In this document: positions 39,085 to 57,917 of the stretch, in pieces | Layout: each line of letters starts with the position of its first letter | Position numbering within the stretch: the first letter of the stretch is position 1 | Assembly (NCBI GenBank): GCA_947459185.1 | Contig: CANHCU010000004.1 | Location: forward strand, 1,673 to 65,672 | Reading direction: 5' to 3' | DNA: 64,000 nt | Source: Planctomycetaceae bacterium | GTDB lineage: Bacteria > Planctomycetota > Planctomycetia > Pirellulales > UBA1268 | Notes under the pieces: model-generated | What the model was told of the DNA's origin: nothing | The model's input: only the letters and a program-made list of their open reading frames with translations | Database searches by the model: none | Program-made: the position numbers and the translations under genes

Positions 39085-39157
39085 GCGGGCGTAGCTCAGT
39101 TGGTAGAGCGCTAGCTTCCCAAGCTGGATGTCGAGGGTTCGAGTCCCTTCGCCCGCT
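39085..39157 (+). tRNA. tRNA-Gly (anticodon CCC)
   Basis: Hand-folded cloverleaf. Acceptor GCGGGCG/CGCCCGC, D arm GCTC-AGTTGGTA-GAGC, anticodon arm CTAGC-TTCCCAA-GCTGG, T arm GAGGG-TTCGAGT-CCCTT, discriminator T. CCA is not encoded. Confidence 0.92.
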
Positions 39158-39168
39158 CTGTCTTCCCG

Positions 39169-39574: not shown

Positions 39575-40490
39575 TTAACCCTGCACCGATACTCCATACT
39601 CCGCGAGCAGTCGTTCTGCCGCGGCGAGGGCTCGCCGGGCCGAGTCGTCAAGCTGTATCGGCCGATTGCCGCCGGTAGGGGTGAGCATGGCGCGGGCGAA
39701 GATCTTGAACTTCTCCAGCGTCGATACCCGCGCCCGCTCGTCGAGCACCTCGAAGCCGCGCCCTCTGATCTTCGTCCCGATCGCGCGATAGATTCTCGCC
39801 GCCGCCCGGACAGCCAGGCGAGAATCGGTATCGAGCCCGCTGATGCCCGCCTCGCCGGCAGAGTAGTAGCTGTCGGCGACTTCGAGGATCGTCTGCACAC
39901 CCCGCCGTACCTGCCGTGGGTCGGGCGGCCCACCGCCGGGCCGCAGCCCGTCGGTCCATTCAAGCGGCAGGTAGCAGCGAGACCGACGCCAGTCTTCCGC
40001 GACGTCGCGGGCGATGTTGGTCAGTTGCATGCCCATGCCAAGCGCCGCCGCGTGGGGGAGATGGCGGCGATCCGCGAGGCCGAGGACAGGACACAAGAGC
40101 ACGCCGACCGCGCCGGCGACCCGAAAGCAGTACAGCAGGAGGTCGGCCTCGTGAAAGCCGGCCGCCGGCGTGAGGTCCGACCGCATCCCATCGAGCAGGG
40201 CGAGGGCCGCGTCGAGTGGCAGGTCATTTCGGCCGACGAGTTCTGCCAGCCAGCGGCTCTCGGGGGCGACCGGGCTGTTTCCACCGGCGATCTGGCGGAC
40301 GTCCTGCGTGGCCCGTTCGACGAACTCCAGCGCCTGCTGCGGCGAGGCAGCGGTATCGACGCCGTCGTCGCACCACCGACACCACGCGTAGAGCCGCTCG
40401 ACGTCGGCCCGTTTGCCGGCGGGCAGCAGGCGGCTGGCAAACGAGAACGAGCGGCTGTGCCGCCGGATCGACTCACCCGCTGTCGGGCTG

Positions 40491-40507
<17 letters not shown>
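39575..40507 (-). CDS. crtB: Phytoene synthase
   Basis: SRSFSFASRLLP, LYAWCRWCDDGVD, QLTNIARDVAEDW. Start MSSPVSS overlaps the crtI 3' end by 17 nt. Confidence 0.9.
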
Positions 40508-42037
<1,530 letters not shown>

Positions 42038-42041
<4 letters not shown>

Positions 42042-43036
42042 AGAAGAGCCTCCGCCCTCGTCGGCTCGATGGCCACCCGCAGGGCGTCGCAGATCGCTGC
42101 CAGCGGAATGGCTTCACGGGCTCCGCCCGTCGCAGCAGTGAGCCTGTCGATTGCCCGGTCGAGCCGGGTGTTGATCGCAGCCACCGCCCGGCGGTGGGTC
42201 GCTTCCAGCAGATCCTTGGCGAGCGGGCGAAACTCAGCCCGCTGCTCTTCCGATTGCCGCAGCCGGCGCTGCCACACTGTGAACTGCTGGGCCGACACTT
42301 CGCTTGCGGCCCAGGCCCACGGCCAGGTGACACGGCGGTTGCGGAGGTCGTCGCACCGATCCGACCCTTCGAGCAGTTCGCAGAGCTCGTCGAGGTCGTT
42401 TTTCATTTGCAGGCAGATGCCGATCCGGCAGCCGAAGGCGGCTACGGCTTTGAGCGTCTGCCGGTCTCCCGCGGCGGCCTGGGCACCACACCACGCGGCC
42501 AATGACGCGAGGCGGCCGGTCTTCCAACGCGAGATCGCCAGCGCCGTGACCTGGGCTTGTCGCGGCGTGACCTCGTCGATCCGCGTGGCGAGGTCGATCG
42601 CCTGCCCCTCGTGACATTGCCGTGCCACCGTGATGAACCTGCCCACGAGCGCCGCCGACCGCGTGGGATCGTCCAAGGCGGCTGACGCCAGTTCCAGAGC
42701 GCGGAAATACATCCAGTTGCCAGCGTTGACGGCCCGGGCCGGCCCGATCACCTGATGCAGCGCCGGCTGGCCGCGGCGGGTGAGCGATTCGTCCTCGAAG
42801 TCGTCGATCACGAGCGAACCAGCGTGCAGGAGTTCGACCGCATCGACGATCAGCGAGGGCGCCGCGGAGCGGCCACCGGCAAATGCATAGGACTCCTCGA
42901 GCAGAGTTGCCCGAAGCCGCTTGCCACCTACGCCGGGATAGAGGTCGGGCGCGAGTTGGAGGGCCTTGGACCAGCCGTGCCCTGTGCGGGTGGTCTGGTG
43001 CGTCGCGCCGGCGAACCCGAGGAGATTTTTCGTCAT
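42038..43036 (-). CDS. crtE: Polyprenyl (geranylgeranyl) diphosphate synthase
   Basis: First Asp-rich motif LLHAGSLVIDDFEDESLTRRG. Second motif is the variant QMKNDLDEL. ATGA overlap with the crtY stop. Confidence 0.8.
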
Positions 43037-44223
43037 GTCGGCAGCGGCCCCGGGAGTGAGACAAACGATCTGGCAAAACGAATCGGCGCCAGGCCCATGG
43101 GCGGCCAGCCAATCATGATCCGAGCCGCATCGGTGAACGTAAAGCGATGCGCGTAAAACCGGGCGATTCGCGCTTCCGGCAGGACACGGTAGAACCGCCG
43201 GAAGATCTTCCAGCGGTCTTCTGGCCTGACCAAGCAAAAGAGCAGCCGGTTCAGAAAGCGGGCGAATCCTCGCCGCAGCCGGTCCTTTGCGACCGCAGAG
43301 GCGACCTCCGCGCCGACTCGGTCCGGGCATGCCCGGGCGACGAGTTCCGCGAAGCGAACGGCCAGCGGCATCGAGTATCCCGTGGCGGCGTGGTACCAGC
43401 CGCCGGCATAGCCGCCGGCTGGCGACCGCCCCTCGCGCCGGGCTGTGGCTGCATAGGGCATCGGGAGACACCCCCGCTCGGTTCGGATCAGCTTCGCCGA
43501 TCCTGCGTCGGCCTCGGCCAGCCGAGCCGAGATCAGCGAGGCGGCCCGCGATTCATCGCACGCCGGCTCCTCGTGGAACCGGGTGTACTCGAGCAGCACG
43601 CGATCAGGACCGAGCGGGAGTTCGTAGAGAAATTCGAAGCCCGCTGCCTGGTCTGCCGGGACATCCATGACAGTCGGTTCCGATGCCGGCCAGCGCCGAG
43701 CAGTCGCATACTCGTGGCCGATGAAGGTCTGATAGCCTGCTCCGCTCGGCGCCCCTGCCTCCGCCCGACCGCGACAGTCGAGGACAGCACGGCAGGAGAT
43801 GTCGGTGGTCCCGCCGAGTCTCACCGCGGTCGGCGAGAGGATCTCACACGACTCGCCTGTGCGAACGACGAGCCGGCCGGGGCGAGCCGCTCCCCCCGCT
43901 CCGCCTGCCAGTGACAGCGTCGCCTCGCGGAGGCGGTCGGACGTGATCGTCGCGTAGGAGATTTTGACTCGCCGCGACAGCGTCGGAAACCTGACGCGAT
44001 AGCCGGGCCAACGGTGGGCGACCAGCGGGTCAAACCAGTTTCTCGCCTGTTCGTCGACGTCTGTCTCGTGGAACGACCAGGTGTGATTGCCGCACAGTTC
44101 AGCGGCCCGTTCGAGGAGCAGGACTGTTGCCTCCGGCCGGTGCCAGGCCAGAGCATGCGCCAAGAGACAGCCTTGAAGACCACCGCCCACGATGCAGTAG
44201 TCGAACTCCGTGACAATTGTCAT
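43033..44223 (-). CDS. crtY: Lycopene beta-cyclase (CrtY type)
   Basis: FDYCIVGGGLQGCLLA dinucleotide fold, GNHTWSFHETD. ATGA overlap with the blh stop. Confidence 0.88.
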   Translation of the reverse strand: MTIVTEFDYCIVGGGLQGCLLAHALAWHRPEATVLLLERAAELCGNHTWSFHETDVDEQARNWFDPLVAHRWPGYRVRFPTLSRRVKISYATITSDRLREATLSLAGGAGGAARPGRLVVRTGESCEILSPTAVRLGGTTDISCRAVLDCRGRAEAGAPSGAGYQTFIGHEYATARRWPASEPTVMDVPADQAAGFEFLYELPLGPDRVLLEYTRFHEEPACDESRAASLISARLAEADAGSAKLIRTERGCLPMPYAATARREGRSPAGGYAGGWYHAATGYSMPLAVRFAELVARACPDRVGAEVASAVAKDRLRRGFARFLNRLLFCLVRPEDRWKIFRRFYRVLPEARIARFYAHRFTFTDAARIMIGWPPMGLAPIRFARSFVSLPGPLPT

Positions 44224-45215
44224 GCGGGGCTCCCCGAGGCTATGCGGGGTTTCAAGTTCATGCGGGGCTTGACGTGCAGCGACTGCATCCGCCGCCGGAC
44301 AGACGCCTCGCACAGCGGGGCGACGCCGTGCAGGAGCAGATGCGGCACAGCCACGGCGCTCAAGCCGACAAAGGTCGCCCGAATGAGCGTGCCATTCCAG
44401 CCCGCCCCGCCGAGCACGAGCCACGCGGCCAGCCCGACCAGAGCGATCGCCCCCACGGTCAAGGGCGCAAGGCTTCGGACTAATTCCGGCCAGCTCTCGC
44501 CAAGTTCACGACGAAGTCGCTCAAGGCCCCGCGCCGAGTGCCAGCCACAGAAATAAACCGGGAAGCTCACCAGCGGGCTCGTGACGGCGAAGAGCACCAC
44601 CAGTGATGCGACCAACGCATTATCGGCGAGCAAGACCCGCCGCCTCCGCCCGGTGCTTCTGCAGGCCATCAGGCCCTGGAACGCCCAGGCGGCCGCCGCA
44701 AGCGGCAGCATGATCCACGAGCAAGCCGTCAGCACGCTGATGGCCTGCTGGATGGCCGGGCCCGAGCCCCCCGGCGCGGTCAGGCCGAGGATCGTGGCGA
44801 CGTCCGTGGCGCGAAACAGCAGCGGCGTCCAGACCACGAGGCCTCCTCGTGCGAATCGGAACACCGGCCGCATGCCCCGCGGACCAACAGGGAGCCGCGG
44901 CTCTTCCTGGCCGAAATGCCAGGCTGAAGCCAGAAAAAATGCCACCACCGTGGCGGCCGGCGCCACGAACCAGCCGCACACAACCACCACCGCAACCGTC
45001 AGATACCCGGCCAGAAACACCGGCAGCCACGCAGTTCCAAGAACCGGTTCGAGCCGCGGCCGGGCGAAGCGATGGTCGGCCGCGCCGTGCGGCAGACCGA
45101 TCAGCGCGACGAGAGCCGCCAAAACGCCGGCCGTGACGCCGGCAGTGGCCTGAGAAAAAAAGAACGCGGCCCCGATAATAGCCCAAGAGAGCAAGATTAC
45201 CGAGGCCGCGTGCAT
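44220..45215 (-). CDS. blh: Beta-carotene 15,15'-dioxygenase (Brp/Blh family), retinal-forming
   Basis: Polytopic membrane protein with conserved His sites LIGLPHGAADH, SAWHFGQ, CGWHSARG and VPHLLLH. Starts 34 nt after the rhodopsin stop. Confidence 0.85.
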   Translation of the reverse strand: MHAASVILLSWAIIGAAFFFSQATAGVTAGVLAALVALIGLPHGAADHRFARPRLEPVLGTAWLPVFLAGYLTVAVVVVCGWFVAPAATVVAFFLASAWHFGQEEPRLPVGPRGMRPVFRFARGGLVVWTPLLFRATDVATILGLTAPGGSGPAIQQAISVLTACSWIMLPLAAAAWAFQGLMACRSTGRRRRVLLADNALVASLVVLFAVTSPLVSFPVYFCGWHSARGLERLRRELGESWPELVRSLAPLTVGAIALVGLAAWLVLGGAGWNGTLIRATFVGLSAVAVPHLLLHGVAPLCEASVRRRMQSLHVKPRMNLKPRIASGSPA

Positions 45216-45249
45216 GGAAACACTATTCTTTTGCAGAGGGTCCCGCCGC

Positions 45250-46107
45250 TCAGACGGTGCCGTACGCCTCACCGTGGGCAGTCTTCGTGCTCTTGGCCTT
45301 GGCGATGAGATAGATCAGCACGCCGAAGCCCGCCTTGGCGGTCATGTCGGCGATCGCGTAACCAATCTGCAGGCCAACGACACCATTGGCACCCGTGACG
45401 CCATTGGCAGCATTCGCGGTCCCGGCCTTCGCCGCCAGGGCATCGGGCGTGCCACCGAGCGCGTAGGCGATCGGGTAGACCGCCCAGGTGACCAGGATCA
45501 CCAGACGGGCGATCTCAAGGAGCTTGCGAGCCGCGGGCGGCTGGCTGTCGAGCGAATTCGTCAGTTCCGTCCAGAGCACATAGAGAATGTAGAAGAACGG
45601 AATCGACGAGAGCCCACCCCAAATAACCCGCTCGGACCAACGCGACGGATCGGAGATCACCTCGCCCGGATAGCCGAGCGCAATCATCAAGGCCGCGGCG
45701 ATCACCAGCCGAGTCAGCAGACTCGTCGCCTTGGCCGAATGCAGTCGCAGGACGGCCACGAGTTCGACCATCAGCAGCGGCACCGTCAGAATCCAGTCGG
45801 CATACCGATAGAAGTCGTTGAAGGCGGCGCCGGTGCCCTTATACCCAGTTGCGCCAACCAGCGAGTAGGCATCGTGCCAGCTGTGGCGGATCATGAAGTA
45901 GTGGTAGCAGGCGATCGAAACCACGATGCCAGACACCAGCAGAGCCGGACGGTATTCCTGATCAACGTGCGAACGGGCCATGAACAAGAACAGGGCGGCC
46001 GCCCCCATCGTCGCGACAGTCATCGAAAAGATGTTGTCTACTGCGTTGTATTGGAGCACTGACAGGTCGGGCATCGCCGACCCAAGCAAACAGAAGCCTT
46101 CGATCAT
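45250..46107 (-). CDS. Microbial rhodopsin, xanthorhodopsin/Gloeobacter-rhodopsin clade, outward proton-pump type (DTE)
   Basis: Seven TM. IACYHYF (His partner), FNDFYRYADWILTVPLLMVEL (D-T-E, Leu at the tuning site), LGYPGEV, VIWGGLSSIPFFYILYVLW, WAVYPIAY, IADMTAKAGFG (Schiff-base Lys). AGGTGA RBS. Confidence 0.93.
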   Translation of the reverse strand: MIEGFCLLGSAMPDLSVLQYNAVDNIFSMTVATMGAAALFLFMARSHVDQEYRPALLVSGIVVSIACYHYFMIRHSWHDAYSLVGATGYKGTGAAFNDFYRYADWILTVPLLMVELVAVLRLHSAKATSLLTRLVIAAALMIALGYPGEVISDPSRWSERVIWGGLSSIPFFYILYVLWTELTNSLDSQPPAARKLLEIARLVILVTWAVYPIAYALGGTPDALAAKAGTANAANGVTGANGVVGLQIGYAIADMTAKAGFGVLIYLIAKAKSTKTAHGEAYGTV

Positions 46108-46266
46108 CGCTTCACCTGTTTTCAATATGGTGTTGGAAAAACTGCAGCCGCTTCGCTCCCTCGGCAACGATCACCAGATCCAAGGGCAAGCCACAACCGG
46201 CCGGCCTCTTGCAACGGATGACTCCCCCTCCGAGAGGGTCTAAGCGACTCCCTAAACAATCGCGAC

Positions 46267-46295
46267 ATAGTAGCCCGTTAGGGACATAACGGCAA
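46267..46295 (-). promoter_or_regulatory. Candidate sigma70-type promoter for the rhodopsin operon
   Basis: Minus strand reads TTGCCG - 17 nt - TACTAT, about 160 nt upstream of ATG 46107. Planctomycete promoter rules are poorly known. Confidence 0.3.
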
Positions 46296-46428
46296 GCGGA
46301 TACCGACTGAGAAGCAGGTTCAAACCCTCGCCGACGGCGACACAGCAGCGGCATAAAGACCGCTTTTCCTACGATATCGCCCGACTCGGCAGGATGTGGG
46401 CCACTGTCTTCAAGAGACGTCCCTGCCC

Positions 46429-47553
46429 TCAGTAGACGTCTTTGAGGTAGCGTTTTTCATTTTTCATGAGGGTTTCCGAGACCCACTCGTCGGCCTGATC
46501 AGGCGTTTTACCGCCATGCTTGGCCACGATCGTCACCAGAGATGCATGAACGTCTTTGGCCATTCGCTTTGCGTCGCCGCAGACGTAGAAGAAAGCACCC
46601 TCGTCCAGCCAGCGATAGAGTTCAGCACCCTCTTCTTCCATGCGGTGCTGCACATAGATTTTGTCGGCCTGATCTCGGGAAAATGCGGTGGAGAGTTTGT
46701 GAAGGAGTCGGGATTTCTGGGCAGCCCGAAATTCCTCGCCGTAAAGGAAATCGGTTTTCGCGTGCTGATCTCCGAACAAGAGCCAATTGCGACCCGAGTG
46801 GCCATGGATGGCACGGTGCTGGAGAAAGCCTCGAAACGGGGCGACACCAGTTCCCGGGCCGACCATGATCATGTCGCGATCTGGTGGTGGGAGATGAAAA
46901 TGGCGTGTGGGTTGGACATAGACGGGGACTGACGACTGGTCGGCCAGATCGGCGAGGTAACCAGACGCGAGGCCCTTTTTGTGCCGACCGTGGGACGTGT
47001 ACTGAACGAGGGCGACAGTAAGGTGAGCCTCTCCGGGACGGTGGTCGGGCGAGGACGCGATTGAGTAGAGACGCGGTGCAATCGTGTTCAGGAGACCGGG
47101 AATTTCCGCGGGCTCAAAGTGCACTCCCGGAGCATCACGAAGAACGTCGATCACGTCCCGGTCGAAAATATAGTGGTCGAACTTTTTGTCATCGGCACAA
47201 ACGTCCTGGAATCTCTGCTTTGCCGGGCCCACAGCTTTTTCCGCCACAGCTCGAACAAACTTTTTCCTCACACGGTTGAGCACGGCAGAGGTTGCAATTG
47301 TTTCGTGCAGGGCCGCATCGTTTTGAAGGCCCAACGTTTCGACGAATTCACTCACCAAAGGTTCGGGGTTCCGCGGCACGACGCCGAGGGCATCGCCACA
47401 GGTGTACGTCGGACCCGCGGAGCCTAAATCGATGACGATGTGGCGGGTATCTTTGCTCGAACCTTGCTGGTTGAGTCGGCGATTTTCACGAAGCCGCGAG
47501 GCAAACGGGTTGCGCCGACCGAAAGCCGTCTGGGGAGTGGGGAATTCGGCCAT
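46429..47553 (-). CDS. Stand-alone FAD/NADPH-binding reductase, CysJ C-terminal (FNR-like) module without flavodoxin domain
   Basis: DTRHIVIDLG, PRLYSIASSP, MVGPGTGVAPFRGFLQ, FYVCGDAKRMAKDV, C-terminal RYLKDVY. Collinear with my recollection of the E. coli CysJ FAD/NADPH half. Confidence 0.85.
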   Translation of the reverse strand: MAEFPTPQTAFGRRNPFASRLRENRRLNQQGSSKDTRHIVIDLGSAGPTYTCGDALGVVPRNPEPLVSEFVETLGLQNDAALHETIATSAVLNRVRKKFVRAVAEKAVGPAKQRFQDVCADDKKFDHYIFDRDVIDVLRDAPGVHFEPAEIPGLLNTIAPRLYSIASSPDHRPGEAHLTVALVQYTSHGRHKKGLASGYLADLADQSSVPVYVQPTRHFHLPPPDRDMIMVGPGTGVAPFRGFLQHRAIHGHSGRNWLLFGDQHAKTDFLYGEEFRAAQKSRLLHKLSTAFSRDQADKIYVQHRMEEEGAELYRWLDEGAFFYVCGDAKRMAKDVHASLVTIVAKHGGKTPDQADEWVSETLMKNEKRYLKDVY

Positions 47554-47624
47554 AGTGCTTCAGGCCACCCCTGAGCGACGTGTACCTGAGCGACGTACGA
47601 GGATTTCAGCGACGTTCCGGGATT

Positions 47625-48584
47625 TCACCGTGCCAGTCCTTCTTTCTCTCGGGGGGGCAGGGCATTGCCTTCCGGTCGTTTCCCCTGTTCCAGCCTGGCG
47701 ATCGAACTGAACCAGCTAAACACGCCGAGAACCACGACCCCATAGACCATAGCGACGAGCGCAACGACAAGATCGTAAGGCTTTGGTGTCGACAAGGATA
47801 CACGGAGAAGCACCGTCGAAATAACGAACCCCGCGTTCCGAAAGACATACTCGTACCGATCGTAGTAGGACAGTGACACGATCAGAAGAAACACGTCTGA
47901 AAAAATCATGAACTCGAAGAAGAGCGGGAAGAAAAAGAGGTCCGGATTCTGCGGCGGATGCGGCTGACCTATGACCGTCGCCGGCACGATTCGCAACCAA
48001 CTCGCGAAATTGAGTGCGGCGAGTCCTACCAGGACGAAGAGCAGCAACACGGCAACGGCTTTTTTCAGCTCGATGAAGCCGTCGAGATTTTTCTCAATCG
48101 AGATCTTGGGCGTCCTCTGGCGAATCAGGGTGAATCCGGTAACGATTACGAACATCGCCACAGCACCCACCATGTCGAGCAACACCGCGCCGGCTGCTGC
48201 AGGTTCTGACAGCCAGTTTTCTATGTCTTCAAAGCCTCCGATGTCTTTAAAGACACGACGCACGATGATGAGCGACATGATCTGATACTGCTTGGCGATT
48301 TCTCCGGTATGGGAATTCGCGATGGCGAAAACGAGGAGAATGACCTCGTAGAAAAGAATGATGCTGAACGGTGTGTAGACCGCGTGAAGAGGGCTGCGAT
48401 CGACGCCTTCAAGGATCGTCTGCGGCATGTCGGGCAGATTCCGAACGGCCGCGATGAGCAGGAGATGCATGAGAAAGCCACCTGCGGCGGCAATCACCAC
48501 ACCTTTTTCGAACCAATCCTGTTTCGAGCATTCCGCCAGCCGATCGAATAACGTGGCCAGGAGATGGCGGACTGATAGAAACAT
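47625..48584 (-). CDS. Polytopic membrane protein of unknown function (~8 predicted TM)
   Basis: Clean 319-aa ORF with repeated hydrophobic helices (FLMHLLLIAAV, FSIILFYEVILLVFAIA, LLDMVGAVAMFVIVTGF, VAVLLLFVLVGLAAL, LFFFPLFFEFMIF, VVALVAMVYGVVVLGVF). No family recognised. Confidence 0.6.
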   Translation of the reverse strand: MFLSVRHLLATLFDRLAECSKQDWFEKGVVIAAAGGFLMHLLLIAAVRNLPDMPQTILEGVDRSPLHAVYTPFSIILFYEVILLVFAIANSHTGEIAKQYQIMSLIIVRRVFKDIGGFEDIENWLSEPAAAGAVLLDMVGAVAMFVIVTGFTLIRQRTPKISIEKNLDGFIELKKAVAVLLLFVLVGLAALNFASWLRIVPATVIGQPHPPQNPDLFFFPLFFEFMIFSDVFLLIVSLSYYDRYEYVFRNAGFVISTVLLRVSLSTPKPYDLVVALVAMVYGVVVLGVFSWFSSIARLEQGKRPEGNALPPREKEGLAR

Positions 48585-48697
48585 CGGGTACCAAAGCTTT
48601 CAGTGGAACTGCTGCGTGGGGGGTGTACTCGATGCATCCTAACGCTGCGTCAACAAAGCGAGTTGCGTCACTTTTTTCGGCTCTTTGTTGGGCTGCG

Positions 48698-48735
48698 AAA
48701 AAAAAGCACCCCGCACGTTGAAACGTACGGGGTGC
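48698..48735 (-). terminator. Intrinsic terminator after the fasciclin gene
   Basis: Minus strand: gcaccccgtacgt-ttc-acgtgcggggtgc (one mismatch) followed by T8. Confidence 0.75.
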
Positions 48736-48792
48736 CGATTGAGAGAGCCGGAACATGTCAGCCGGAACCTGGCAGTCAGTTCGGCACGATCG

Positions 48793-49281
48793 TTACGGCA
48801 GAATCACGGCGTCGATCACGTGGATCACGCCGTTGCTCGTCTTGATGTCGGTCTTGGTGACGTTCGACATCCCCTTCGCGGTGCCGACCTTCACGCCGCC
48901 CGTGGTGGAGATCTTCACAGCCGCTCCGCCGGCCGTCTTGGCTTCCGTGAGCTTGACGACGTCAGCCGCCATCACCGAGCCCGGCACGACGTGGAGCAGC
49001 AGGATTTCCTTCAGCTTGCCCTTGTTTTCGGGCTTGAGGAGGGTTTCGAGCGTGCCAGCCGGCAGCTTGGCGAAGGCTTCGTCGGTCGGAGCAAAGACCG
49101 TGAACGGTCCGGCACCCTTGAGGGTATCGACCAGTTCGGCAGCGGTGAGGGCGGCGGCCAACGTCTTAAACGAGCCGGCTCCGACAGCCGTCTCGACGAT
49201 ATCAGCAGCCCGACCGACCGACATCGAACCAATCAGGCAGCAGGCCATCGCCACGATGGCGGAAAAACGGGACATCTTCAT
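48793..49281 (-). CDS. Secreted fasciclin (FAS1) domain protein
   Basis: Signal [72 protein letters not shown]. Confidence 0.9.
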
Positions 49282-49536
49282 GGGGAAATTTCTCTCATAG
49301 GGAAAGGATTGAGTACTCACGTCGGGGGAAGAGTAGCAACCCCAAGCACGCTGCCAAGTGGCAAATCCGGCGCATGAGCCTCTGAAGATGAACGCGGCCC
49401 GCGGCTTTTCGATGTTTTGCCGAAAAGAGAATCGATCGTTTTGTGATAGGACACTTTCGATGGACATGCCGCTCCGCAGAGACGGCACTGCTCCATCGAC
49501 AGCCTGCGGTTAAGGATTCTGATCGATGATTCGTGC

Positions 49537-50799
49537 TCAGCGGCCCGCCCACGCGGCCTCGATCGCGTCGCAGGCGAGTTCGAGGCCGTCGGCATCGGCT
49601 AGCCTGGCGGCGACGTCGCGGCAGCGGGTCGCCACGGCCGAATCGTCGAGCAGCCCGCGAATCATCTCGGCGACCGCCGGCCCACGAAAGCGTTTTGGTG
49701 GCAGGCTCTTCCCTACGCCGAGGCGTTCGATGCGGGCTGCGTTGTCGCACTGATCGAAGCCCATCGGCATGATCACCTGCGGCACGCCCGCCGCGAGCGC
49801 CTGCGACATCGAGCCGATGCCGCCGTGGTGCGCGAGCAGGGCCGATCGCGCGAGCAGCCAGCGAAATGGCACGAAATCAACGTGCCGCACGCCATCGGGC
49901 AGCGATGTCGGCACCTGCTCGGGAAACCGCGTGAGCAGCAGGCCGCGACGGCCAAGCCGCAGGCAGGCCTCGGCGGCGGCTAGAAAGAAGTCGCGTCCAT
50001 ACACATTGGCCGAGCCGGGCGTGAACACCAGCGGCGGCGGGCCAGCTTCGATGAACCGCACGACATCGGCCGAGGGCTCGACCACGCCCTCCTCGCTGTA
50101 AAGCGGAAACCCGGCGAGTCGCGTCTGGGGAGGCCAGTCTCGCTGCCGCGGCGCAAACCACTCGGGAAACATCGCGACCAGTCCCAGCGGCGAATGCATC
50201 CACTCGCGAAAAACACCGCGGACCGGCGGCAGACCGAGACGGCCTCGAAACTCGTTGAGCCACGGGCAGATCGCGCGATCCGAGACGCCATCGACAAGCT
50301 GCCACTGCAGTCGCCGAAACCAGGCCGGTCCGCGGTGCACCGGCAGCACCGGCAGCCGTGGGCCCTCGAAGTCGCTGCGAAAGAGCATCGGCGAGAGGTG
50401 AACGCTTACGAGCGGGATGCCCTGCGCTTCCTGGGCGACACGCGCTCCGAAGGCGAGGCTCGACCCACCAACGAGCGTGCGGCCCGGTGTCTGGTGGTCG
50501 AGGATGCTGCGATACACAGGCTCGAGCAGCGGGCGGATCGCCAGATCGATGATCGTTCGCGCGCCGTGGATCGGATGCCAGATCCGCGGGTTGCGAATCA
50601 TCTCCCGAAAGTCGCTCTCTGGTAGCGGATCGACGAACTCCAGGCCCGCCTCTTCGACGAGCCTGCGGAAATACCCGGCCGTGATGACCGTCACCCGATA
50701 GCCGCGCCGTCGCAACACCCGCCCCAGGCCCACAAAGGGATGCACGTCTCCCGAACTGCCGATGGTGCAGAGGATGACATGGACAAGGCTGTCATCCAT
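49537..50799 (-). CDS. GT1-family (UDP-glycosyltransferase/MGT-like) glycosyltransferase
   Basis: VILCTIGSSGDVHPFVGLGRVLRRRGYRVTV. C-terminal HHGGIGSMSQALAAGVPQVIMPMGFDQCDNA nucleotide-sugar signature. Confidence 0.85.
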   Translation of the reverse strand: MDDSLVHVILCTIGSSGDVHPFVGLGRVLRRRGYRVTVITAGYFRRLVEEAGLEFVDPLPESDFREMIRNPRIWHPIHGARTIIDLAIRPLLEPVYRSILDHQTPGRTLVGGSSLAFGARVAQEAQGIPLVSVHLSPMLFRSDFEGPRLPVLPVHRGPAWFRRLQWQLVDGVSDRAICPWLNEFRGRLGLPPVRGVFREWMHSPLGLVAMFPEWFAPRQRDWPPQTRLAGFPLYSEEGVVEPSADVVRFIEAGPPPLVFTPGSANVYGRDFFLAAAEACLRLGRRGLLLTRFPEQVPTSLPDGVRHVDFVPFRWLLARSALLAHHGGIGSMSQALAAGVPQVIMPMGFDQCDNAARIERLGVGKSLPPKRFRGPAVAEMIRGLLDDSAVATRCRDVAARLADADGLELACDAIEAAWAGR

Positions 50800-50800
50800 G

Positions 50801-52204
50801 CTAATTTTGGCCGCTCTTGCGGAAGTCCCAGGGGGCGACAGGGCTAGGCTGGGCCCAGAGGCCGAGCCGTTGCGACTGGGCCTGCGACTGCAGGGCCGCG
50901 AGCGATGTGTCACGGGAATAGTCTACGTAGTGCCAGGCGTTGCCGGTGGCAACCATCTGCCGGTTGACGTCAACGCCGTTCGAGGAGAGGTGGCCGATCC
51001 AGCGGCCGTAGCGGTCCTTGCCGTCTTCCGTCACCTCGACCGTCTTGCCAAACACCATCTCCGCCAGCACCTCGCGAGACACCTTGCCGTAGTCCTGGCC
51101 GATCTCCGGCGCGTCGATCTCCGCCAGCCTCACCTTCTGCTGCTGGTTCGACTCGTCGAGGCAGGTAACCGTGTCGCCGTCGTGCACGCCCACCACACGC
51201 CAGAGATGTGGACCTACGGAGCGGTTCGCCGACGACTGCATCGGCGAGACACTCACCGGCTGCGCGGGTGTTGACGACGGCGAGATCGGCGTGGGAAACG
51301 ACGAGGCTGGCGACGCGGGAGGGACCGGCGGCTGCGTTGCCGTGGCGATGGCGGCTGCCGAACCGGCCACCATCGGCGGCGCTTCCGTTGACGATGCCCA
51401 CTGGCTCGGCGGTGGCGCCGCCTGAGGGACTCCCGGCGGGGTCTGCTGGACCGGTGCCCACGATGCTGATGATGGTGCTGGTGTAGGCGGCGGTGGTGCC
51501 AGCGCCGGGGCCAAGGGCTGTGGCTGATAGGTCGGTGGTGCCGAAGCGAACGACGTGGCTGGCAGCGTTCCCTGCGGCGGCACGATCGGCGTGCCGGTGA
51601 GCGCCTTCGACCCCGGAGGATATTGGTAGGGCACCGGCTGATAACGGGCCACCGTGGCCGGCGGCAGCGTGTAGGTCGCTGCCGGCGCGCCCTGCGTCTG
51701 ATAGTTCCAGCCCTGCATCGATGCCGGCTGTGTCGCCATCGGCATCGCCTGCCGTCGATTCACCTGCGATGGGCTGGGCATGCCTGCCGCCGCGGCAAGC
51801 ACGGGGGGCCCGATCTGATAGGTGAAGACGTAGGTGGGCGAGTAATACATCGTCAGGGGACGGCCATCCGGTCCGACGCCCTGATAGGGCACGGCCTGCG
51901 GCGTCCAGCCGGTAGGAATGGCGCCGCCCTGGATCACGGCTGAAGGAAGCGCTGGCGCCTGCCAGTAGGGATGCGAGCCGCCTCCGGCCGTCGCTGTGCC
52001 CGACACACCGCCTGTGGCCCAGGCATTCACCGCCTGCGTCGCGGGTGTCGTGGCGACGGGTGATTGCGCGGAAGCGCCGCGGCCGGCCGCGCAGAGGATG
52101 ACCACTGCCACGAGCCGGACGTACAGAGAACCCCAGCGATGTCGGCGTCCCTGCCGCACGTTGTTCGCCCTCCTGGCGACGCCAGGGTTGTAACAGCCCA
52201 CCAC
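50801..52204 (-). CDS. Exported protein: ~330-aa Pro/Gln/Ala/Thr-rich region + C-terminal staphylococcal-nuclease (SNase/thermonuclease) domain
   Basis: VVGVHDGDTVTCLD, KVRLAEIDAPEIGQDYG, DRYGRWIGHL, NRQMVATGNAWHY, LGLWA. Stop is 1 nt from the GT1 start. Confidence 0.8.
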   Translation of the reverse strand: MVGCYNPGVARRANNVRQGRRHRWGSLYVRLVAVVILCAAGRGASAQSPVATTPATQAVNAWATGGVSGTATAGGGSHPYWQAPALPSAVIQGGAIPTGWTPQAVPYQGVGPDGRPLTMYYSPTYVFTYQIGPPVLAAAAGMPSPSQVNRRQAMPMATQPASMQGWNYQTQGAPAATYTLPPATVARYQPVPYQYPPGSKALTGTPIVPPQGTLPATSFASAPPTYQPQPLAPALAPPPPTPAPSSASWAPVQQTPPGVPQAAPPPSQWASSTEAPPMVAGSAAAIATATQPPVPPASPASSFPTPISPSSTPAQPVSVSPMQSSANRSVGPHLWRVVGVHDGDTVTCLDESNQQQKVRLAEIDAPEIGQDYGKVSREVLAEMVFGKTVEVTEDGKDRYGRWIGHLSSNGVDVNRQMVATGNAWHYVDYSRDTSLAALQSQAQSQRLGLWAQPSPVAPWDFRKSGQN

Positions 52205-53833: not shown

Positions 53834-55108
53834 CTACCCGACCGCCAGTTCTTTCACGGTGCCCGTGCTGTCGCCAAACGCGTCGATCTCGACTCCCGTG
53901 CCCTTGAGCAACGTAAGCCAGACGTTGCAGAGCGGCGTATTCCTGGGTTGGACGATATGGTGGCCCAGTGTGATGCCGGCGCCGCCGCCCGCGATCAGGG
54001 TGGGGCAGTTGTCGAGATAGTGGATCGAGCGGATCGTGCTGCCAAAGACAACGGTGGTATGGTCGAACAGGCTCGACCCATCCGTCTCCTTCGTGGCCTT
54101 CAGTTTGTCGAGGAGCGTGGCCAGCATCTCGCTCTGCGCGAGGTCGCGTTTCTGCGAGGCCGCCATTCGGTCGCCGGGGTGGTAGTGGCTCATGTCGTGG
54201 GAGGCCACCGCGATTCCCAGGCTCTTGAGCAGGTGCTGGATCGGCTGACGGTAGGTGACGACGCGTGTGCTGTCGGTCTGCAGAGCCGCCACGAGCAGGT
54301 CGTACATGATCAAGACCTCCTCGCGGCCGACCAGCCCTTCGCCCGGTTGTGTGAGCGGCGTCTTCGGCTTGGCCGCACCCAGCCAGCGTTCCTCCTTCGC
54401 GAGCCGCGTCTCGATATCGCGGACTCCCTGGAAATATTCGTCGAGCTTGTCGGTGTCGGCGGCACTGAGCCCGCGTTGCACGCTCTTCGCGTCTTCGAGC
54501 ACCGCGTCGAGCACGCTCCGCTTTTTGACGAGCATCTGCTGCCGCTGTGCGAGCGGCACGTCGTCGGCCGAGAAGAGTTTGTGGAAGGCGATCACAGGGC
54601 TGTTGAAACCCGCGATCGGCTTCCCGCGGCGATCCCAGGCCAGGGACAGGCCAGGGCCGTGTCCAGCACCGTCGAGGCCGGGCTCGCTGCCGTTGAGTTG
54701 AAGCGACGCAAACCGCGTGTCGCTGCCGAGTTGGCCGGCCACGACCTGGTCCATCGAGAGCGATTTCGTGGGGCCGGCGCCGGTGAGCCAGACCGTGCTG
54801 CCGCCGTGCGGGTCGCCCGCGAACGCATGCGTGCAGCCCTGCACGACCGTGAAGCTGTCTTTGTGCCGGGCGAGCGGCGCGAGCCCCTCGGTGAGCGTGT
54901 AACCGGCGCCGACATCGTCTTTCTTCGGAAACCATGTCTCCTCGGTCACGCCGTAGCCGATGCCCAGGCAGACCATCCGCCTCGGCCGGGCGGCCACTGC
55001 CGCCCGTGCACACCTGCGGAAGCCAAACGATTCGAGCGAGGGGAGGGCCAGGAGCGTGGTCGCTGCCTGGAGCACGCGGCGGCGGGACGGCATGGGCATG
55101 GGGGGCAT
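53834..55108 (-). CDS. TAT-signal DUF1552-like protein (planctomycete paired family)
   Basis: SRRRVLQAATTLLALP twin-arginine signal. DMSHYHPG, TVVFGSTIRSIHYLDNCPTLIAGGGAG, FGDSTG. Family name is from memory of Rhodopirellula-type DUF pairs. Confidence 0.65.
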   Translation of the reverse strand: MPPMPMPSRRRVLQAATTLLALPSLESFGFRRCARAAVAARPRRMVCLGIGYGVTEETWFPKKDDVGAGYTLTEGLAPLARHKDSFTVVQGCTHAFAGDPHGGSTVWLTGAGPTKSLSMDQVVAGQLGSDTRFASLQLNGSEPGLDGAGHGPGLSLAWDRRGKPIAGFNSPVIAFHKLFSADDVPLAQRQQMLVKKRSVLDAVLEDAKSVQRGLSAADTDKLDEYFQGVRDIETRLAKEERWLGAAKPKTPLTQPGEGLVGREEVLIMYDLLVAALQTDSTRVVTYRQPIQHLLKSLGIAVASHDMSHYHPGDRMAASQKRDLAQSEMLATLLDKLKATKETDGSSLFDHTTVVFGSTIRSIHYLDNCPTLIAGGGAGITLGHHIVQPRNTPLCNVWLTLLKGTGVEIDAFGDSTGTVKELAVG

Positions 55109-55136
55109 CTCCGGGAGGTGCGGCGGCGTTTGAGGT

Positions 55137-57851
55137 CTATTGCTTCGTGCAGAAAACCGGGCTCTGGACAACCGCATGGATAAACTCGCGGACGGAAAAG
55201 TCGCTGGTAGCGGCCCGGTCAACGACCGCCTTCACGAGGTCGTCGTCTGAAAACCCCACCGGCCGGCCAAGGGCGTACGTAAGCAGGGCCTCGGTGAAGC
55301 CCGTCGCGAAGTCGGTGTGGCGAGAGGCCACGATCTCCCGCAGTTCATTGAAATCCTTGAACGCAGGACCGTTGTGAAACGCCCCCGACGGGTCGATCTC
55401 CCATTCCTTTGTGCCTACGCCGGACTTCTGATACGAGTCCTTCGACCGCCACATGCCGACGGCGTCGAAGTTCTCCAGGCCGAACCCGATCGGGTCGATC
55501 TTCCGGTGGCAGGAGGCACACTGCGGCTGCTCCTGGTGCATTTGGATCCGCTCGCGCGAGGTGAGGAGTTTGTCCTCGAGCCTCGTGATCTGCGGAACGT
55601 TGGGAGGGGCGGGCGGCGGCGGATCGTGGAGCAGTTTCCGCAGCACCCATGCGCCCCGCTCCACCGGGCTCGTCTGTTCGCCGTTGCTGCCCATGGCGGC
55701 CACGGCCGCCATGCCGAGGAGCCCGCCCCGAGGTGAGCCTTCTGGCAGCTTCACCATCCGATACGCGTCGCCGCTAACCCCATCGAGACCGTAGTAGTTG
55801 GCCATCATCGAATTGACGACCACGAAGTCGCTCTTGAGCAGGTTGCGAAGGCTCAGGTTTTCCTTCAAGAGCATCGCGAACGTCTCGTAGATTTCCTGCC
55901 GAGAAGCGTCTTTGGTTTTCGGGTCGTAGCGGGGATACACGCTGTCCTTGAACTGGAAAAAGTCGAGGCGTTCGACTCCGAGCCACTGATGCGTAAACGC
56001 CGTGACGAACTCCCGCGATCGCGGATCGTCGAGCATCCGCTCGACCTGTGCGGCCCGGCCTTCCGGCTTGAGCAGCTCGCCTGAGCGGGCCGACTCGAGC
56101 AAGGCGTCGTCGGGCGGCCCGCTCCACAGGAAGTAGGAGAGCCGGCTGGCGAGTTCGAATCCGTCGAGCGGCCGTCGCACCTGCGACTCCGTTGGCTCTG
56201 CCAGATAGAGGAAGTGTGGCGACGAGAGCATGGTCGCCAGCGATTCCGTCACCGCTTCGCGAAACGGCCGGCCGTCAGCACGCTCCCGCTCGTAGATCGC
56301 AAGCAGACGGTCGAGAAACGCCGGCTCGGGCTGGCGGCCGCGAAATGCCCGCGTGGCAAACCGCTCGAGCACGCCACGAATATCCTGCTCGGCGGAGGGC
56401 TTCGTCGCGGTCGGCTGCGGGGCGGCCGGCACGGTGAGCAGTTCGGCAAGTGCCGCCGGTGCCTGCTGATTCGCGGGCAAAGGGCCCTCGATCTCCACCC
56501 AGTCGATCCAGATGCCCAGCGGCGGGCCGATGCCGTTGGCATGGAAGGCGTCGAAGAAGATGCGATGCCCCTGATTGTCGTTGTCGTAGCTCCCCTTCTC
56601 CCTGAAGACAAAAATCTGCGAACCCTCAGTCTCGACCGGGATCTCGACGATCTGCGGCTCCTTCATCGAGCCCGTAATCTCCCGGCATTCGGCGTGCTCG
56701 CCCGCCACACCCCGCGGGCCGCAGACAATGAACCGTCGCTCGGGCAGAGACTCCTCCGTCGCCGCGACGCGGAGCCTGAGCATGTATGCGCCCGGAGGCC
56801 AGCCGCCCGGCACGCCAAACTGCATGTGGATGTTCACATAGGGGTCGTTGACGCCGAGAAATGCTCCCGTTTCCACGGCGGGGTGCGACGCGTAGGCGGC
56901 ATGGTTGGGCACCCGCATGTTCCAGTCACGGCTGCCCGCCTGGAACGCGGAGATCGCGTCGACGAATTGAAACTCCTTCGGGGATGGGGCTCCCTGCAGC
57001 TTGTCCCAGTTGTGCAGGAGTGGCTCGGGCTGATTGGGATTCGCCTTGCGAATGTCGGCGGCGGCAGTCTGATTCTCCGGCCTGCGGGCTGCCGCCTCCA
57101 CGGCATTTTTCCAGAGGACGAACCGGCGGCGTTCGTCCAGTCGCGTGGCCAGCCTGCTCCGCACTCCCGGCGTGCTTGTCTCGGCCTCCATCCGATGGGT
57201 ACGGGACGGATGCACCGTGCCATACCGCCGCCACGACTCCTGGATCGCGGCCGCGGCGATCTCGTGGTACTGCTCGATCTGATCTGCCGAGATGAAGAGT
57301 CTTTCGCCCGCGGTGTCGAACGTACCCGAACCGCCGTCGGCCGGTAGCCCGTCTGAACGCGGCTGCACACCCAGCAGCTCGCGGAGCGTGTTGACATACT
57401 CGCGACGGTTGAGCCGCCGCATTGTGGTGCGGCCGCCGGTGTCGGCCAACGCCTTCCCGGCCACGACCATCGCCTTGGAGAGATCCTCCAGCAGGTCAGC
57501 CTTGGCAGCGGCCGCGAGTTGCTCGGCGTCTTTCGGCGGCATCTCACCTGCATTCAAGACGTTGAGCACCTTCCGCCAGCGGTCGGCCGTGTCGGCTGAG
57601 TCGATCTCCGCCGGAAGCGTGTCGATGCGAAATCCACCGCCAGCGTCATCGGGGCCGTGGCAGTCCGCACAATGGGCGGCAAGGAGCGGCGGGGTCGAGG
57701 CCTTGACCCTGGCCACGACCGCAGGCTCGGCGGCCCCGGCAGCGGCAGCAGCCGCGAATATCGCGAAAACAAGGCCGACGGCCGTCGTCCGTCCAAACGA
57801 GATCACAAAAAACCTCGTGGCAACTTTTTTTATCTTGAAGCAATGACACAT
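55137..57851 (-). CDS. Large DUF1592/DUF1588-family-like protein with two CxxCH motifs (planctomycete cytochrome-like)
   Basis: N-terminal anchor, CADCHGPDD, and near the C-terminus QCASCHRKIDPIGFGLENFDAVGMWR. Partner gene immediately downstream. Confidence 0.65.
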   Translation of the reverse strand: MCHCFKIKKVATRFFVISFGRTTAVGLVFAIFAAAAAAGAAEPAVVARVKASTPPLLAAHCADCHGPDDAGGGFRIDTLPAEIDSADTADRWRKVLNVLNAGEMPPKDAEQLAAAAKADLLEDLSKAMVVAGKALADTGGRTTMRRLNRREYVNTLRELLGVQPRSDGLPADGGSGTFDTAGERLFISADQIEQYHEIAAAAIQESWRRYGTVHPSRTHRMEAETSTPGVRSRLATRLDERRRFVLWKNAVEAAARRPENQTAAADIRKANPNQPEPLLHNWDKLQGAPSPKEFQFVDAISAFQAGSRDWNMRVPNHAAYASHPAVETGAFLGVNDPYVNIHMQFGVPGGWPPGAYMLRLRVAATEESLPERRFIVCGPRGVAGEHAECREITGSMKEPQIVEIPVETEGSQIFVFREKGSYDNDNQGHRIFFDAFHANGIGPPLGIWIDWVEIEGPLPANQQAPAALAELLTVPAAPQPTATKPSAEQDIRGVLERFATRAFRGRQPEPAFLDRLLAIYERERADGRPFREAVTESLATMLSSPHFLYLAEPTESQVRRPLDGFELASRLSYFLWSGPPDDALLESARSGELLKPEGRAAQVERMLDDPRSREFVTAFTHQWLGVERLDFFQFKDSVYPRYDPKTKDASRQEIYETFAMLLKENLSLRNLLKSDFVVVNSMMANYYGLDGVSGDAYRMVKLPEGSPRGGLLGMAAVAAMGSNGEQTSPVERGAWVLRKLLHDPPPPAPPNVPQITRLEDKLLTSRERIQMHQEQPQCASCHRKIDPIGFGLENFDAVGMWRSKDSYQKSGVGTKEWEIDPSGAFHNGPAFKDFNELREIVASRHTDFATGFTEALLTYALGRPVGFSDDDLVKAVVDRAATSDFSVREFIHAVVQSPVFCTKQ

Positions 57852-57917
57852 GTACCGTATTCTAGAGAGGGTTGGGGACCAATCCAAGACAAAAACTTGT
57901 GCCGGCAGGGGAATGGC

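Follow-up and report, generated by a model that had tools for sequence, protein, structure and literature searches.

A xanthorhodopsin-family opsin with a clade-wide F-G loop insertion beside the predicted carotenoid fenestration in a freshwater planctomycete

The opsin gene and its pump motifs

The 64-kb stretch of contig CANHCU010000004.1 analysed here as a whole (hereafter the window), which comes from a freshwater planctomycete of the Pirellulales, carries on its reverse strand an opsin gene followed by genes of retinal and carotenoid biosynthesis (Table 1). The product is a microbial (type 1) rhodopsin, as indicated by its Pfam match (Bac_rhodopsin PF01036, 4e-41), the seven long helices predicted for it and the invariant K258, and it belongs to the xanthorhodopsin (XR) family, within the clade of XR, Gloeobacter rhodopsin (GR), thermophilic rhodopsin (TR) and Kin4B8 of the superclade formed by proteorhodopsin (PR) and XR. 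Its distinguishing feature is the loop between helices F and G, which is the longest seen at the level of the family and is a shared trait of the whole clade of this opsin rather than an oddity of the individual gene. The open reading frame (ORF) begins with ATG; a longer, TTG-initiated ORF extends to 46167, and homologues start at the ATG.

Sequence comparison with solved structures returned psXR (PDB 9WFA, 1.8e-68), Salinibacter ruber XR (3DDL, 2.3e-66), GR (6NWD, 8.9e-65), TR (5AZD, 2e-61) and Kin4B8 (7YTB, 1.9e-60), chains of the XR clade scoring from 1e-55 to 1e-68 in this search versus ~1e-27 to 1e-18 for PR and the sodium and chloride pumps KR2 and ClR. The AlphaFold2 (AF2) model, built from 52 sequences, displayed a mean predicted local distance difference test (pLDDT) value of 90.2 and a predicted template-modelling score (pTM) of 0.88. 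When it was compared with the PDB by Foldseek, TR, psXR, GR, XR and Kin4B8 ranked highest, with template-modelling (TM) scores of 0.91-0.95, normalised to the solved structure as target, and 45-51% identity. The assignment to the XR family thus follows from both sequence and structure similarity being highest to solved XRs, and not to PR, NQ or bacteriorhodopsin (BR). The model was also inspected for the three-stranded sheet of N-terminal strand and B-C loop known as the "omega rhodopsin" feature, and it contains strands at 81-83 and 89-91 and one bridge residue at 15.

Residue positions were mapped by HMMER alignment to XR 3DDL, which is gap-free between helices C and F. A preliminary description, made from the letters alone, had placed Asp, Thr and Glu (DTE) at the equivalents of BR D85, T89 and D96, a green-type Leu at the PR-105 tuning position, the partner of the counter-ion in the His of IACYHYF, and an Asp together with the Schiff-base Lys in IADMTAKAGFG. 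The alignment bears out all these assignments (Table 1), and D254 and K258 show no variation either in alignment A1 or in the alignment of 197 clusters of the clade. Among the 120 closest clusters at 90% identity, DTE is kept in 119/120, Leu in 119/119 and His in 119/120. To our knowledge, all characterised DTE members of the XR family are outward H+ pumps and, because the opsin carries this motif, it is very probably an outward light-driven proton pump of this family too. Nothing is out of the ordinary in the DTE residues, the Leu, the His or the retinal operon.

Table 1. Coordinates of the opsin gene, its key residues, the operon and further features within the window
Feature	Positions	Strand	Assignment and basis
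Xanthorhodopsin-family opsin gene	45250..46107	(-)	285 aa + stop; Pfam, PDB sequence matches, AF2, Foldseek
H69 (IACYHYF)	45901..45903	(-)	XR H62, PR H75; counter-ion partner
Helix C motif RYADWILTVPLLMVEL, residues 101-116	45760..45807	(-)	D104, T108, L112, E115; alignment to XR
D104			XR D96; counter-ion
T108			XR T100; middle residue of DTE motif
L112			PR position 105; spectral tuning; counted as D+8 within motif
E115			XR E107; cytoplasmic proton donor
Gly164-Gly165, helix E (VIWGGLSS)	45613..45618	(-)	G164 at fenestration position by alignment
Insertion core TPDALAAKAG, residues 220-229	45421..45450	(-)	AF2 short helix at 221-227; clade conservation
Additional indel TANAAN, residues 230-235	45403..45420	(-)	Specific to spacing-41 subclade
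DMTAK in helix G	45334..45348	(-)	D254 second counter-ion, K258 Schiff-base lysine
blh, beta-carotene 15,15'-dioxygenase	44220..45272	(-)	Maximal ORF; Pfam BCD 9.6e-46; TIGR03753 165 bits, cut-off 95
crtY, lycopene beta-cyclase	43033..44424	(-)	Maximal ORF; TIGR01789 267.8 bits, cut-off 215; Pfam Lycopene_cycl
crtE-like polyprenyl (geranylgeranyl diphosphate-type) diphosphate synthase	42038..43471	(-)	Maximal ORF; Pfam polyprenyl_synt 4.7e-38, residues 180-417
crtI, phytoene desaturase	40491..42041	(-)	TIGR02734 629 bits, cut-off 238
crtB, phytoene synthase	39575..40648	(-)	Maximal ORF; Pfam SQS_PSY 1.5e-61; NCBIfam CrtB models 1e-44 to 1e-52, below equivalog cut-offs
tRNA-Gly(CCC)	39085..39158	(+)	~420 bp past crtB 3' end
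CysJ-like FAD/NADPH reductase	46429..47553	(-)	TIGR01931 388 bits, below cut-off
Multi-pass membrane protein, 319 aa	47625..48584	(-)	
Terminator-like hairpin	48705..48736	(-)	14 pairs, then T-run
Fasciclin-domain protein	48793..49488		
GT1-family (MGT/EryCIII-like) glycosyltransferase	49537..50913	(-)	Sub-threshold macrolide-type NCBIfam matches only
DUF1552 (HXXSHH) and PSCyt/PSD-domain gene pair	53834..57887	(-)	DUF1585, 1587, 1588, 1592, 1595 in the second protein

The F-G loop and the fenestration position across the clade

In HMMER alignments the F-G loop exceeds that of GR (6NWD) and psXR (9WFA) by 15 residues, that of Kin4B8 by ~14, that of TR by ~15 and that of XR by 10. The preliminary description had put the excess over GR at about 15 residues, and its GR sequence agrees with the 6NWD alignment. 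As a proxy of loop length, the residue spacing from the YP motif of helix F to the Asp of helix G was used, which is 41 in the query and would be ~25 in BR, PR and KR2. For comparison, the 150 best representatives of the family at 50% identity were taken, 66 of which are full-length; in this diverse set the mode is 26 (39/66), the largest value outside the clade of the query is 34, and the long loop is confined to that clade. Within it, spacings of 35-41 are found in 120/120 of the closest clusters, and of exactly 35, 40 or 41 in 197/197 clusters of close relatives, a set assembled with a second search seeded by the 76%-identical representative P0121. Thus, the qualification of the loop as unusually long, proposed from the single gene, stands for the family and not for the clade, where such a length is common.

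A genome scan with one genome per species gave 277 stretches encoding a relative, the best 80 of which are the loci counted throughout. Nearly all these 80 are labelled as planctomycetes (Pirellulales, Planctomycetia, Planctomycetota or "Ca. Kuenenia"), the exceptions being two Chitinophagaceae and one "uncultured bacterium", and most of them are metagenome-assembled genomes (MAGs) from freshwater lakes, such as Lakes Mendota and Pavin. One spacing among them reads 42 and another 29. Cultured strains are also represented, namely Rubripirellula obstinata CECT 8602, SH139 and SH449, all with the spacing-35 form and Gly at the fenestration position, and some protein clusters of the long-loop clade hold hundreds of member sequences.

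The insertion, which is missing from the GR, psXR, TR and Kin4B8 sequences in the alignments, consists of two dissimilar parts. In the first one, G218, T220, A223, L224, A226 and G229 are invariant in 197/197 clusters, as is G242 further on, with P221 nearly so, and the core pattern G-x-T-P-x-A-L-x-A-x-x-G is strictly conserved across the clade alignment. The AF2 model ends helix F at 218 and predicts a short helix at 221-227 (mean pLDDT of 81 for the block 221-230), and the small-x-x-small pattern of A223 and A226, together with L224, points to a helix that packs onto the body of the protein. Residues 228-239 are modelled as coil (mean pLDDT of 65 for the block 231-240) until helix G begins at 240. 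Residues 230-235 and their surroundings form the variable, low-complexity part of the loop, with low AF2 confidence, and this six-residue indel is present in ~92/175 of the clusters with Gly at position 164 and in 0/22 of those with Phe. The portrayal of the loop as rich in Gly, Ala and Asn leaves out of view its strictly conserved core, which is predicted to form a short helix. An N-glycosylation sequon was sought in the Asn-rich stretch of the opsin loop, and none occurs in the sequence.

Regarding the fenestration, G164 aligns with XR G156, Kin4B8 G153 and psXR G172, which places the first Gly of VIWGGLSS where the preliminary description had expected it. Its presence makes the site antenna-permissive as proposed, without making it special, since ~55% of environmental XRs carry a Gly there (10.1101/2022.08.24.505090). 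The following residue, G165, stands where XR has F157, Kin4B8 V154 and GR T179. Such a Gly-Gly pair is found in 0/13 fenestrated representatives outside the clade, which carry A, V, T, L or I after the Gly, and is the majority state inside it (110/175 Gly-type clusters).

Of the 197 clusters of the clade, 175 carry Gly at position 164 and 22 carry Phe, which closes the fenestration; the Phe-type clusters still have the spacing-35 loop with its invariant core. These Phe-type sequences (P0121, P0271-P0290) show WF[GAV]LSC at the fenestration position and GSTPAAL.AA.G in the loop, and they represent a natural closed-window control. Other positions follow the same division: position 168 is Ser in 138/175 Gly-type and 0/22 Phe-type clusters (Cys, Met or Val in the latter), position 227 is Lys in 139/175 and 0/22, and position 222 is Asp or Glu in 121/175 and 0/22, respectively, while position 172 is Phe in the Gly-type and Val, Leu or Ile in the Phe-type. 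As weak evidence, this covariation fits selection on a functional pocket in Gly-type proteins.

The retinal operon and its surroundings

The order rhodopsin-blh-crtY-crtE-crtI-crtB is kept in every one of the 80 loci with enough flanking sequence, the genes being detected beside the opsin in 73 (blh, adjacent), 72 (crtY), 65 (crtE), 60 (crtI) and 48 (crtB) of them. All NCBIfam matches of the crtE-like synthase lie under their cut-offs, and its true start is probably downstream of that of the maximal ORF. Judged by gene content, the encoded pathway is predicted to end at beta-carotene and retinal, making the operon self-sufficient for retinal. The Pfam scans, which extended to most other ORFs of the 64-kb window with high G+C at third codon positions, contained no CrtZ (FA_hydroxylase-type), CrtW (desaturase-type) or CrtO-like protein, and six-frame tblastn of the window and the 80 loci with CrtZ and CrtW queries gave no significant match. 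Pfam and NCBIfam scans and tblastn of the window thus concur with the earlier statement that the local operon makes only beta-carotene and retinal and is accompanied by no crtZ, crtW or crtO. The 64-kb window says nothing on xanthophyll genes in the rest of the genome. Downstream of crtB, on the opposite strand, a tRNA gene marks the end of the operon.

De novo clustering of flanking ORFs over the 80 loci returned mostly operon genes and shadow ORFs, the sole other conserved neighbour being the 319-aa membrane protein. This protein is highly conserved (mean column identity of 70%), invariant positions with charged residues or His being numerous, and its homologue adjoins the rhodopsin-carotenoid operon in 26/80 loci, in three different arrangements. 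It was considered as a carotenoid-modifying enzyme; searches of Pfam, NCBIfam and PDB sequences gave no match, its 689 homologues are unnamed or annotated as "hypothetical protein", and its AF2 model, based on 25 homologues, is of low confidence (pLDDT 56.8, pTM 0.37). Its gene may have an accessory function in the rhodopsin or carotenoid system. The CysJ-like reductase, which lacks a flavodoxin domain and lies directly upstream of the opsin gene, is probably not a member of the system, being linked to the opsin in only 4/80 loci, the closest ones (L001, L002, L003 and L014). Neither was the glycosyltransferase retained as a CrtX-like candidate, given its sub-threshold matches (Table 1) and its position beside the operon in 2/80 loci.

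The G+C content falls to 0.57-0.60 at ~46000-50000; elsewhere in the window it mostly lies at 0.65-0.69, with 0.61 at 58-60 kb. This segment upstream of the opsin gene, which spans the reductase, the 319-aa membrane protein and the fasciclin-domain protein, could be more recently acquired or differently constrained. Between the genes for the two latter proteins lies a strong terminator-like hairpin, an indication that the membrane protein and reductase genes, and possibly the opsin operon with them, are transcribed as a unit distinct from the genes upstream. Further away, the DUF1552 and PSCyt/PSD gene pair is typical of planctomycetes and fits the Pirellulales origin of the window.

Role of the insertion and comparison with known systems

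The carotenoid fenestration of Kin4B8 is formed by G153, T157, Y204, A205, S208 and Y209, the last two being hydrogen-bonded to the 3-hydroxy ring of the xanthophyll, with their mutation weakening both binding and energy transfer (PMC12423958; 10.1101/2022.08.24.505090). These six residues align to G164, S168, Y215, A216, G219 and T220 of the query, the first four being kept or conservatively replaced. Of the two residues at the Kin4B8 anchor positions, T220 is the single polar one, and the alignment is not secure at this point, where the insertion starts. The insertion of the clade, of 9-15 residues, begins where Kin4B8 has S208 and Y209 (G219-T220-P221...), and since the anchor positions are its first residues, it would have to reshape the floor of the ring pocket.

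Considering these observations together, we lean slightly towards the opsin being a green proton pump heading a self-sufficient retinal operon, whose insertion would remodel the floor of the carotenoid-ring pocket and whose Gly-type majority would bind a xanthophyll antenna. Located where helix F ends on the extracellular side, the insertion would serve as a structural element, its short conserved helix (221-227) leading into a flexible linker rich in Gly and Ala, and polar contacts to the xanthophyll might come from T220, S168 and perhaps D222 and K227. The pigment would either be synthesised through genes located in another part of the genome or be acquired from the environment. In this regard, planctomycetes in culture are described as making carotenoids of the saproxanthin type (Kallscheuer 2019, cited in PMC12673574), and in vitro such rhodopsins bind xanthophylls supplied in chromophore extracts of lake or marine origin (10.1101/2022.08.24.505090, PMC12137139). 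The parts of this proposal differ in strength. That the Gly-type protein binds some carotenoid antenna has about an even chance, whereas a direct participation of the inserted helix in carotenoid binding is doubtful. Still less probable is that helix 220-229 constitutes a new binding determinant that replaces the Ser/Tyr anchor of Kin4B8 and, with a wide Gly164-Gly165 window, confers a distinct antenna selectivity in these abundant planctomycetes of lakes. On that reading, the antenna might be a carotenoid of planctomycete origin, saproxanthin-type or glycosylated, or else algal xanthophylls that the cells scavenge.

Several points weigh against an antenna role of the insertion. The helix core is retained in the Phe-blocked subclade, so its primary role may be unrelated to carotenoids, and the covariations between Gly- and Phe-type clusters probably reflect one or two ancestral splits and not independent events. 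The loop after G218 can be aligned to S208 and Y209 of Kin4B8 only without certainty. A Gly at the fenestration is no guarantee of binding: secondary obstruction of the window by other side chains is possible, and psXR failed to bind canthaxanthin (PMC12779958). Finally, no hydroxylase or ketolase was found in the window or beside the operon in the 80 loci, which leaves no candidate there for the production of an endogenous antenna pigment.

The same retention of the helix by proteins with a blocked window implies a role that is independent of an open window, and not an antenna feature only. This bears on an alternative to which we give some weight, though it is an unlikely one, in which the insertion is purely an element of structure or assembly that caps helices F and G at their extracellular ends, contacts lipids or the unusual periplasm of planctomycetes, or lies at the outer rim of an oligomer; the pump would then work with retinal alone or bind carotenoid as other XRs do. 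The invariance of T220, A223, L224, A226 and G229 in the Phe-type as well is in agreement with it, and the small A223 and A226 (i, i+3) with L224 resemble a helix-packing face. On the contrary, a purely structural element would not readily account for an insertion that starts within 1-2 residues of the xanthophyll-ring anchors of Kin4B8 (PMC12423958), nor for the restriction of the charged D/E222 and K227 and the polar S168 to Gly-type proteins.

Helix 220-229 could also be a movable lid on the fenestration. A permanent version of this, with the inserted helix folding back to close the window secondarily and leave a retinal-only pump despite Gly164, would fit an operon ending at beta-carotene and retinal and the xanthophyll genes not being found near it in the window or the 80 loci. 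It is nonetheless quite improbable: Gly164 is kept in 175/197 clusters, Gly165 or Ala165 widens the opening and S168 is conserved alongside, all hard to explain if the window were sealed, and the Phe subclade shows that this lineage closes it by the ordinary route. Least credible of all is a neutral low-complexity expansion of Ala and Gly codons in a 65% G+C genome, devoid of function. The G+C of 65-68% in the window outside 46-50 kb, the variability of residues 230-241, their low AF2 confidence and the six-residue indel between subclades would agree with it, but seven loop positions are invariant over 197 clusters that are only ~73-99% identical overall, with spacing held at 35, 40 or 41, so that neutrality would apply to residues 230-235 at most.

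The interest of the clade lies in rhodopsin phototrophy being hardly studied in Planctomycetota, while long-loop proteins are widespread, mostly in lakes. Current antenna prediction uses a single Gly and the polarity of the fenestration floor, and here the floor is altered by an insertion; the clade thereby tests how reliable the rule "Gly156 means antenna" is, and could bring to light another mode of carotenoid-ring retention. Natural controls exist inside it, both as Phe-blocked members and as members with spacing 35 versus 41, and cultured hosts are available. Should the loop prove to have a structural role alone, this opsin would simply add to the known green proton pumps. Nothing in these findings contradicts current understanding, the pump being of a known kind and the clade-specific loop variant the new part. 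Freshwater planctomycete MAG rhodopsins had been noted earlier at survey level (PMC6461901, as "green-light rhodopsins"; 10.1101/2022.08.01.502354). Our literature search for planctomycete rhodopsins found survey-level mentions only, with no biochemical or structural work, no named clade and no account of the loop insertion; rhodopsins are absent from a 2025 review on Planctomycetota.

Among characterised proteins, psXR (9WFA) and GR (6NWD) are the best sequence matches of the query (50-51% identity), with which they have DTE, His and the fenestration Gly in common. Both are cyanobacterial, and their hosts make their own xanthophylls. Relative to the query, their F-G loop is 15 residues shorter and their D-E loop 3 residues shorter. 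Lutein is bound by psXR and echinenone by GR; in psXR a bulky Leu (L224) tilts the lutein (PMC12779958), at a position occupied by a small Ala both in the query (A216) and in Kin4B8. The latter, a freshwater XR binding zeaxanthin or lutein (PDB 7YTB/8I2Z), shows 45-46% identity and TM scores of 0.92-0.95 (target-normalised), and it shares with the query the DTE motif, the freshwater origin, the fenestration Gly (G153 = G164), T157 = S168, Y204 = Y215 and A205 = A216. It differs in V154 at the place of G165 and in a short F-G loop (spacing ~27) that starts with the xanthophyll-anchoring S208/Y209, where the query has G219/T220 and then a 14-residue insertion. Salinibacter ruber XR (3DDL) is 47% identical, with an equal D-E loop length and G156 = G164; its F-G spacing is 31, its smaller insertion differs in sequence (PMAFPEAFPSNTPGT), and besides F157 it has a pocket floor with hydrophobic Met residues, its carotenoid being the 4-keto acyl-glycoside salinixanthin.

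In concept, the closest precedent is HeimdallR1 (PDB 9JTQ), an antenna rhodopsin from an Asgard archaeon that is distant from the query in sequence (E 7e-19). Its intracellular loop ICL3 forms a short extra helix that packs on transmembrane helix 6 and contacts the distal ring of the carotenoid (PMC12137139). The helix predicted for the query would, on the contrary, be extracellular and lie beside the ring that enters the fenestration.

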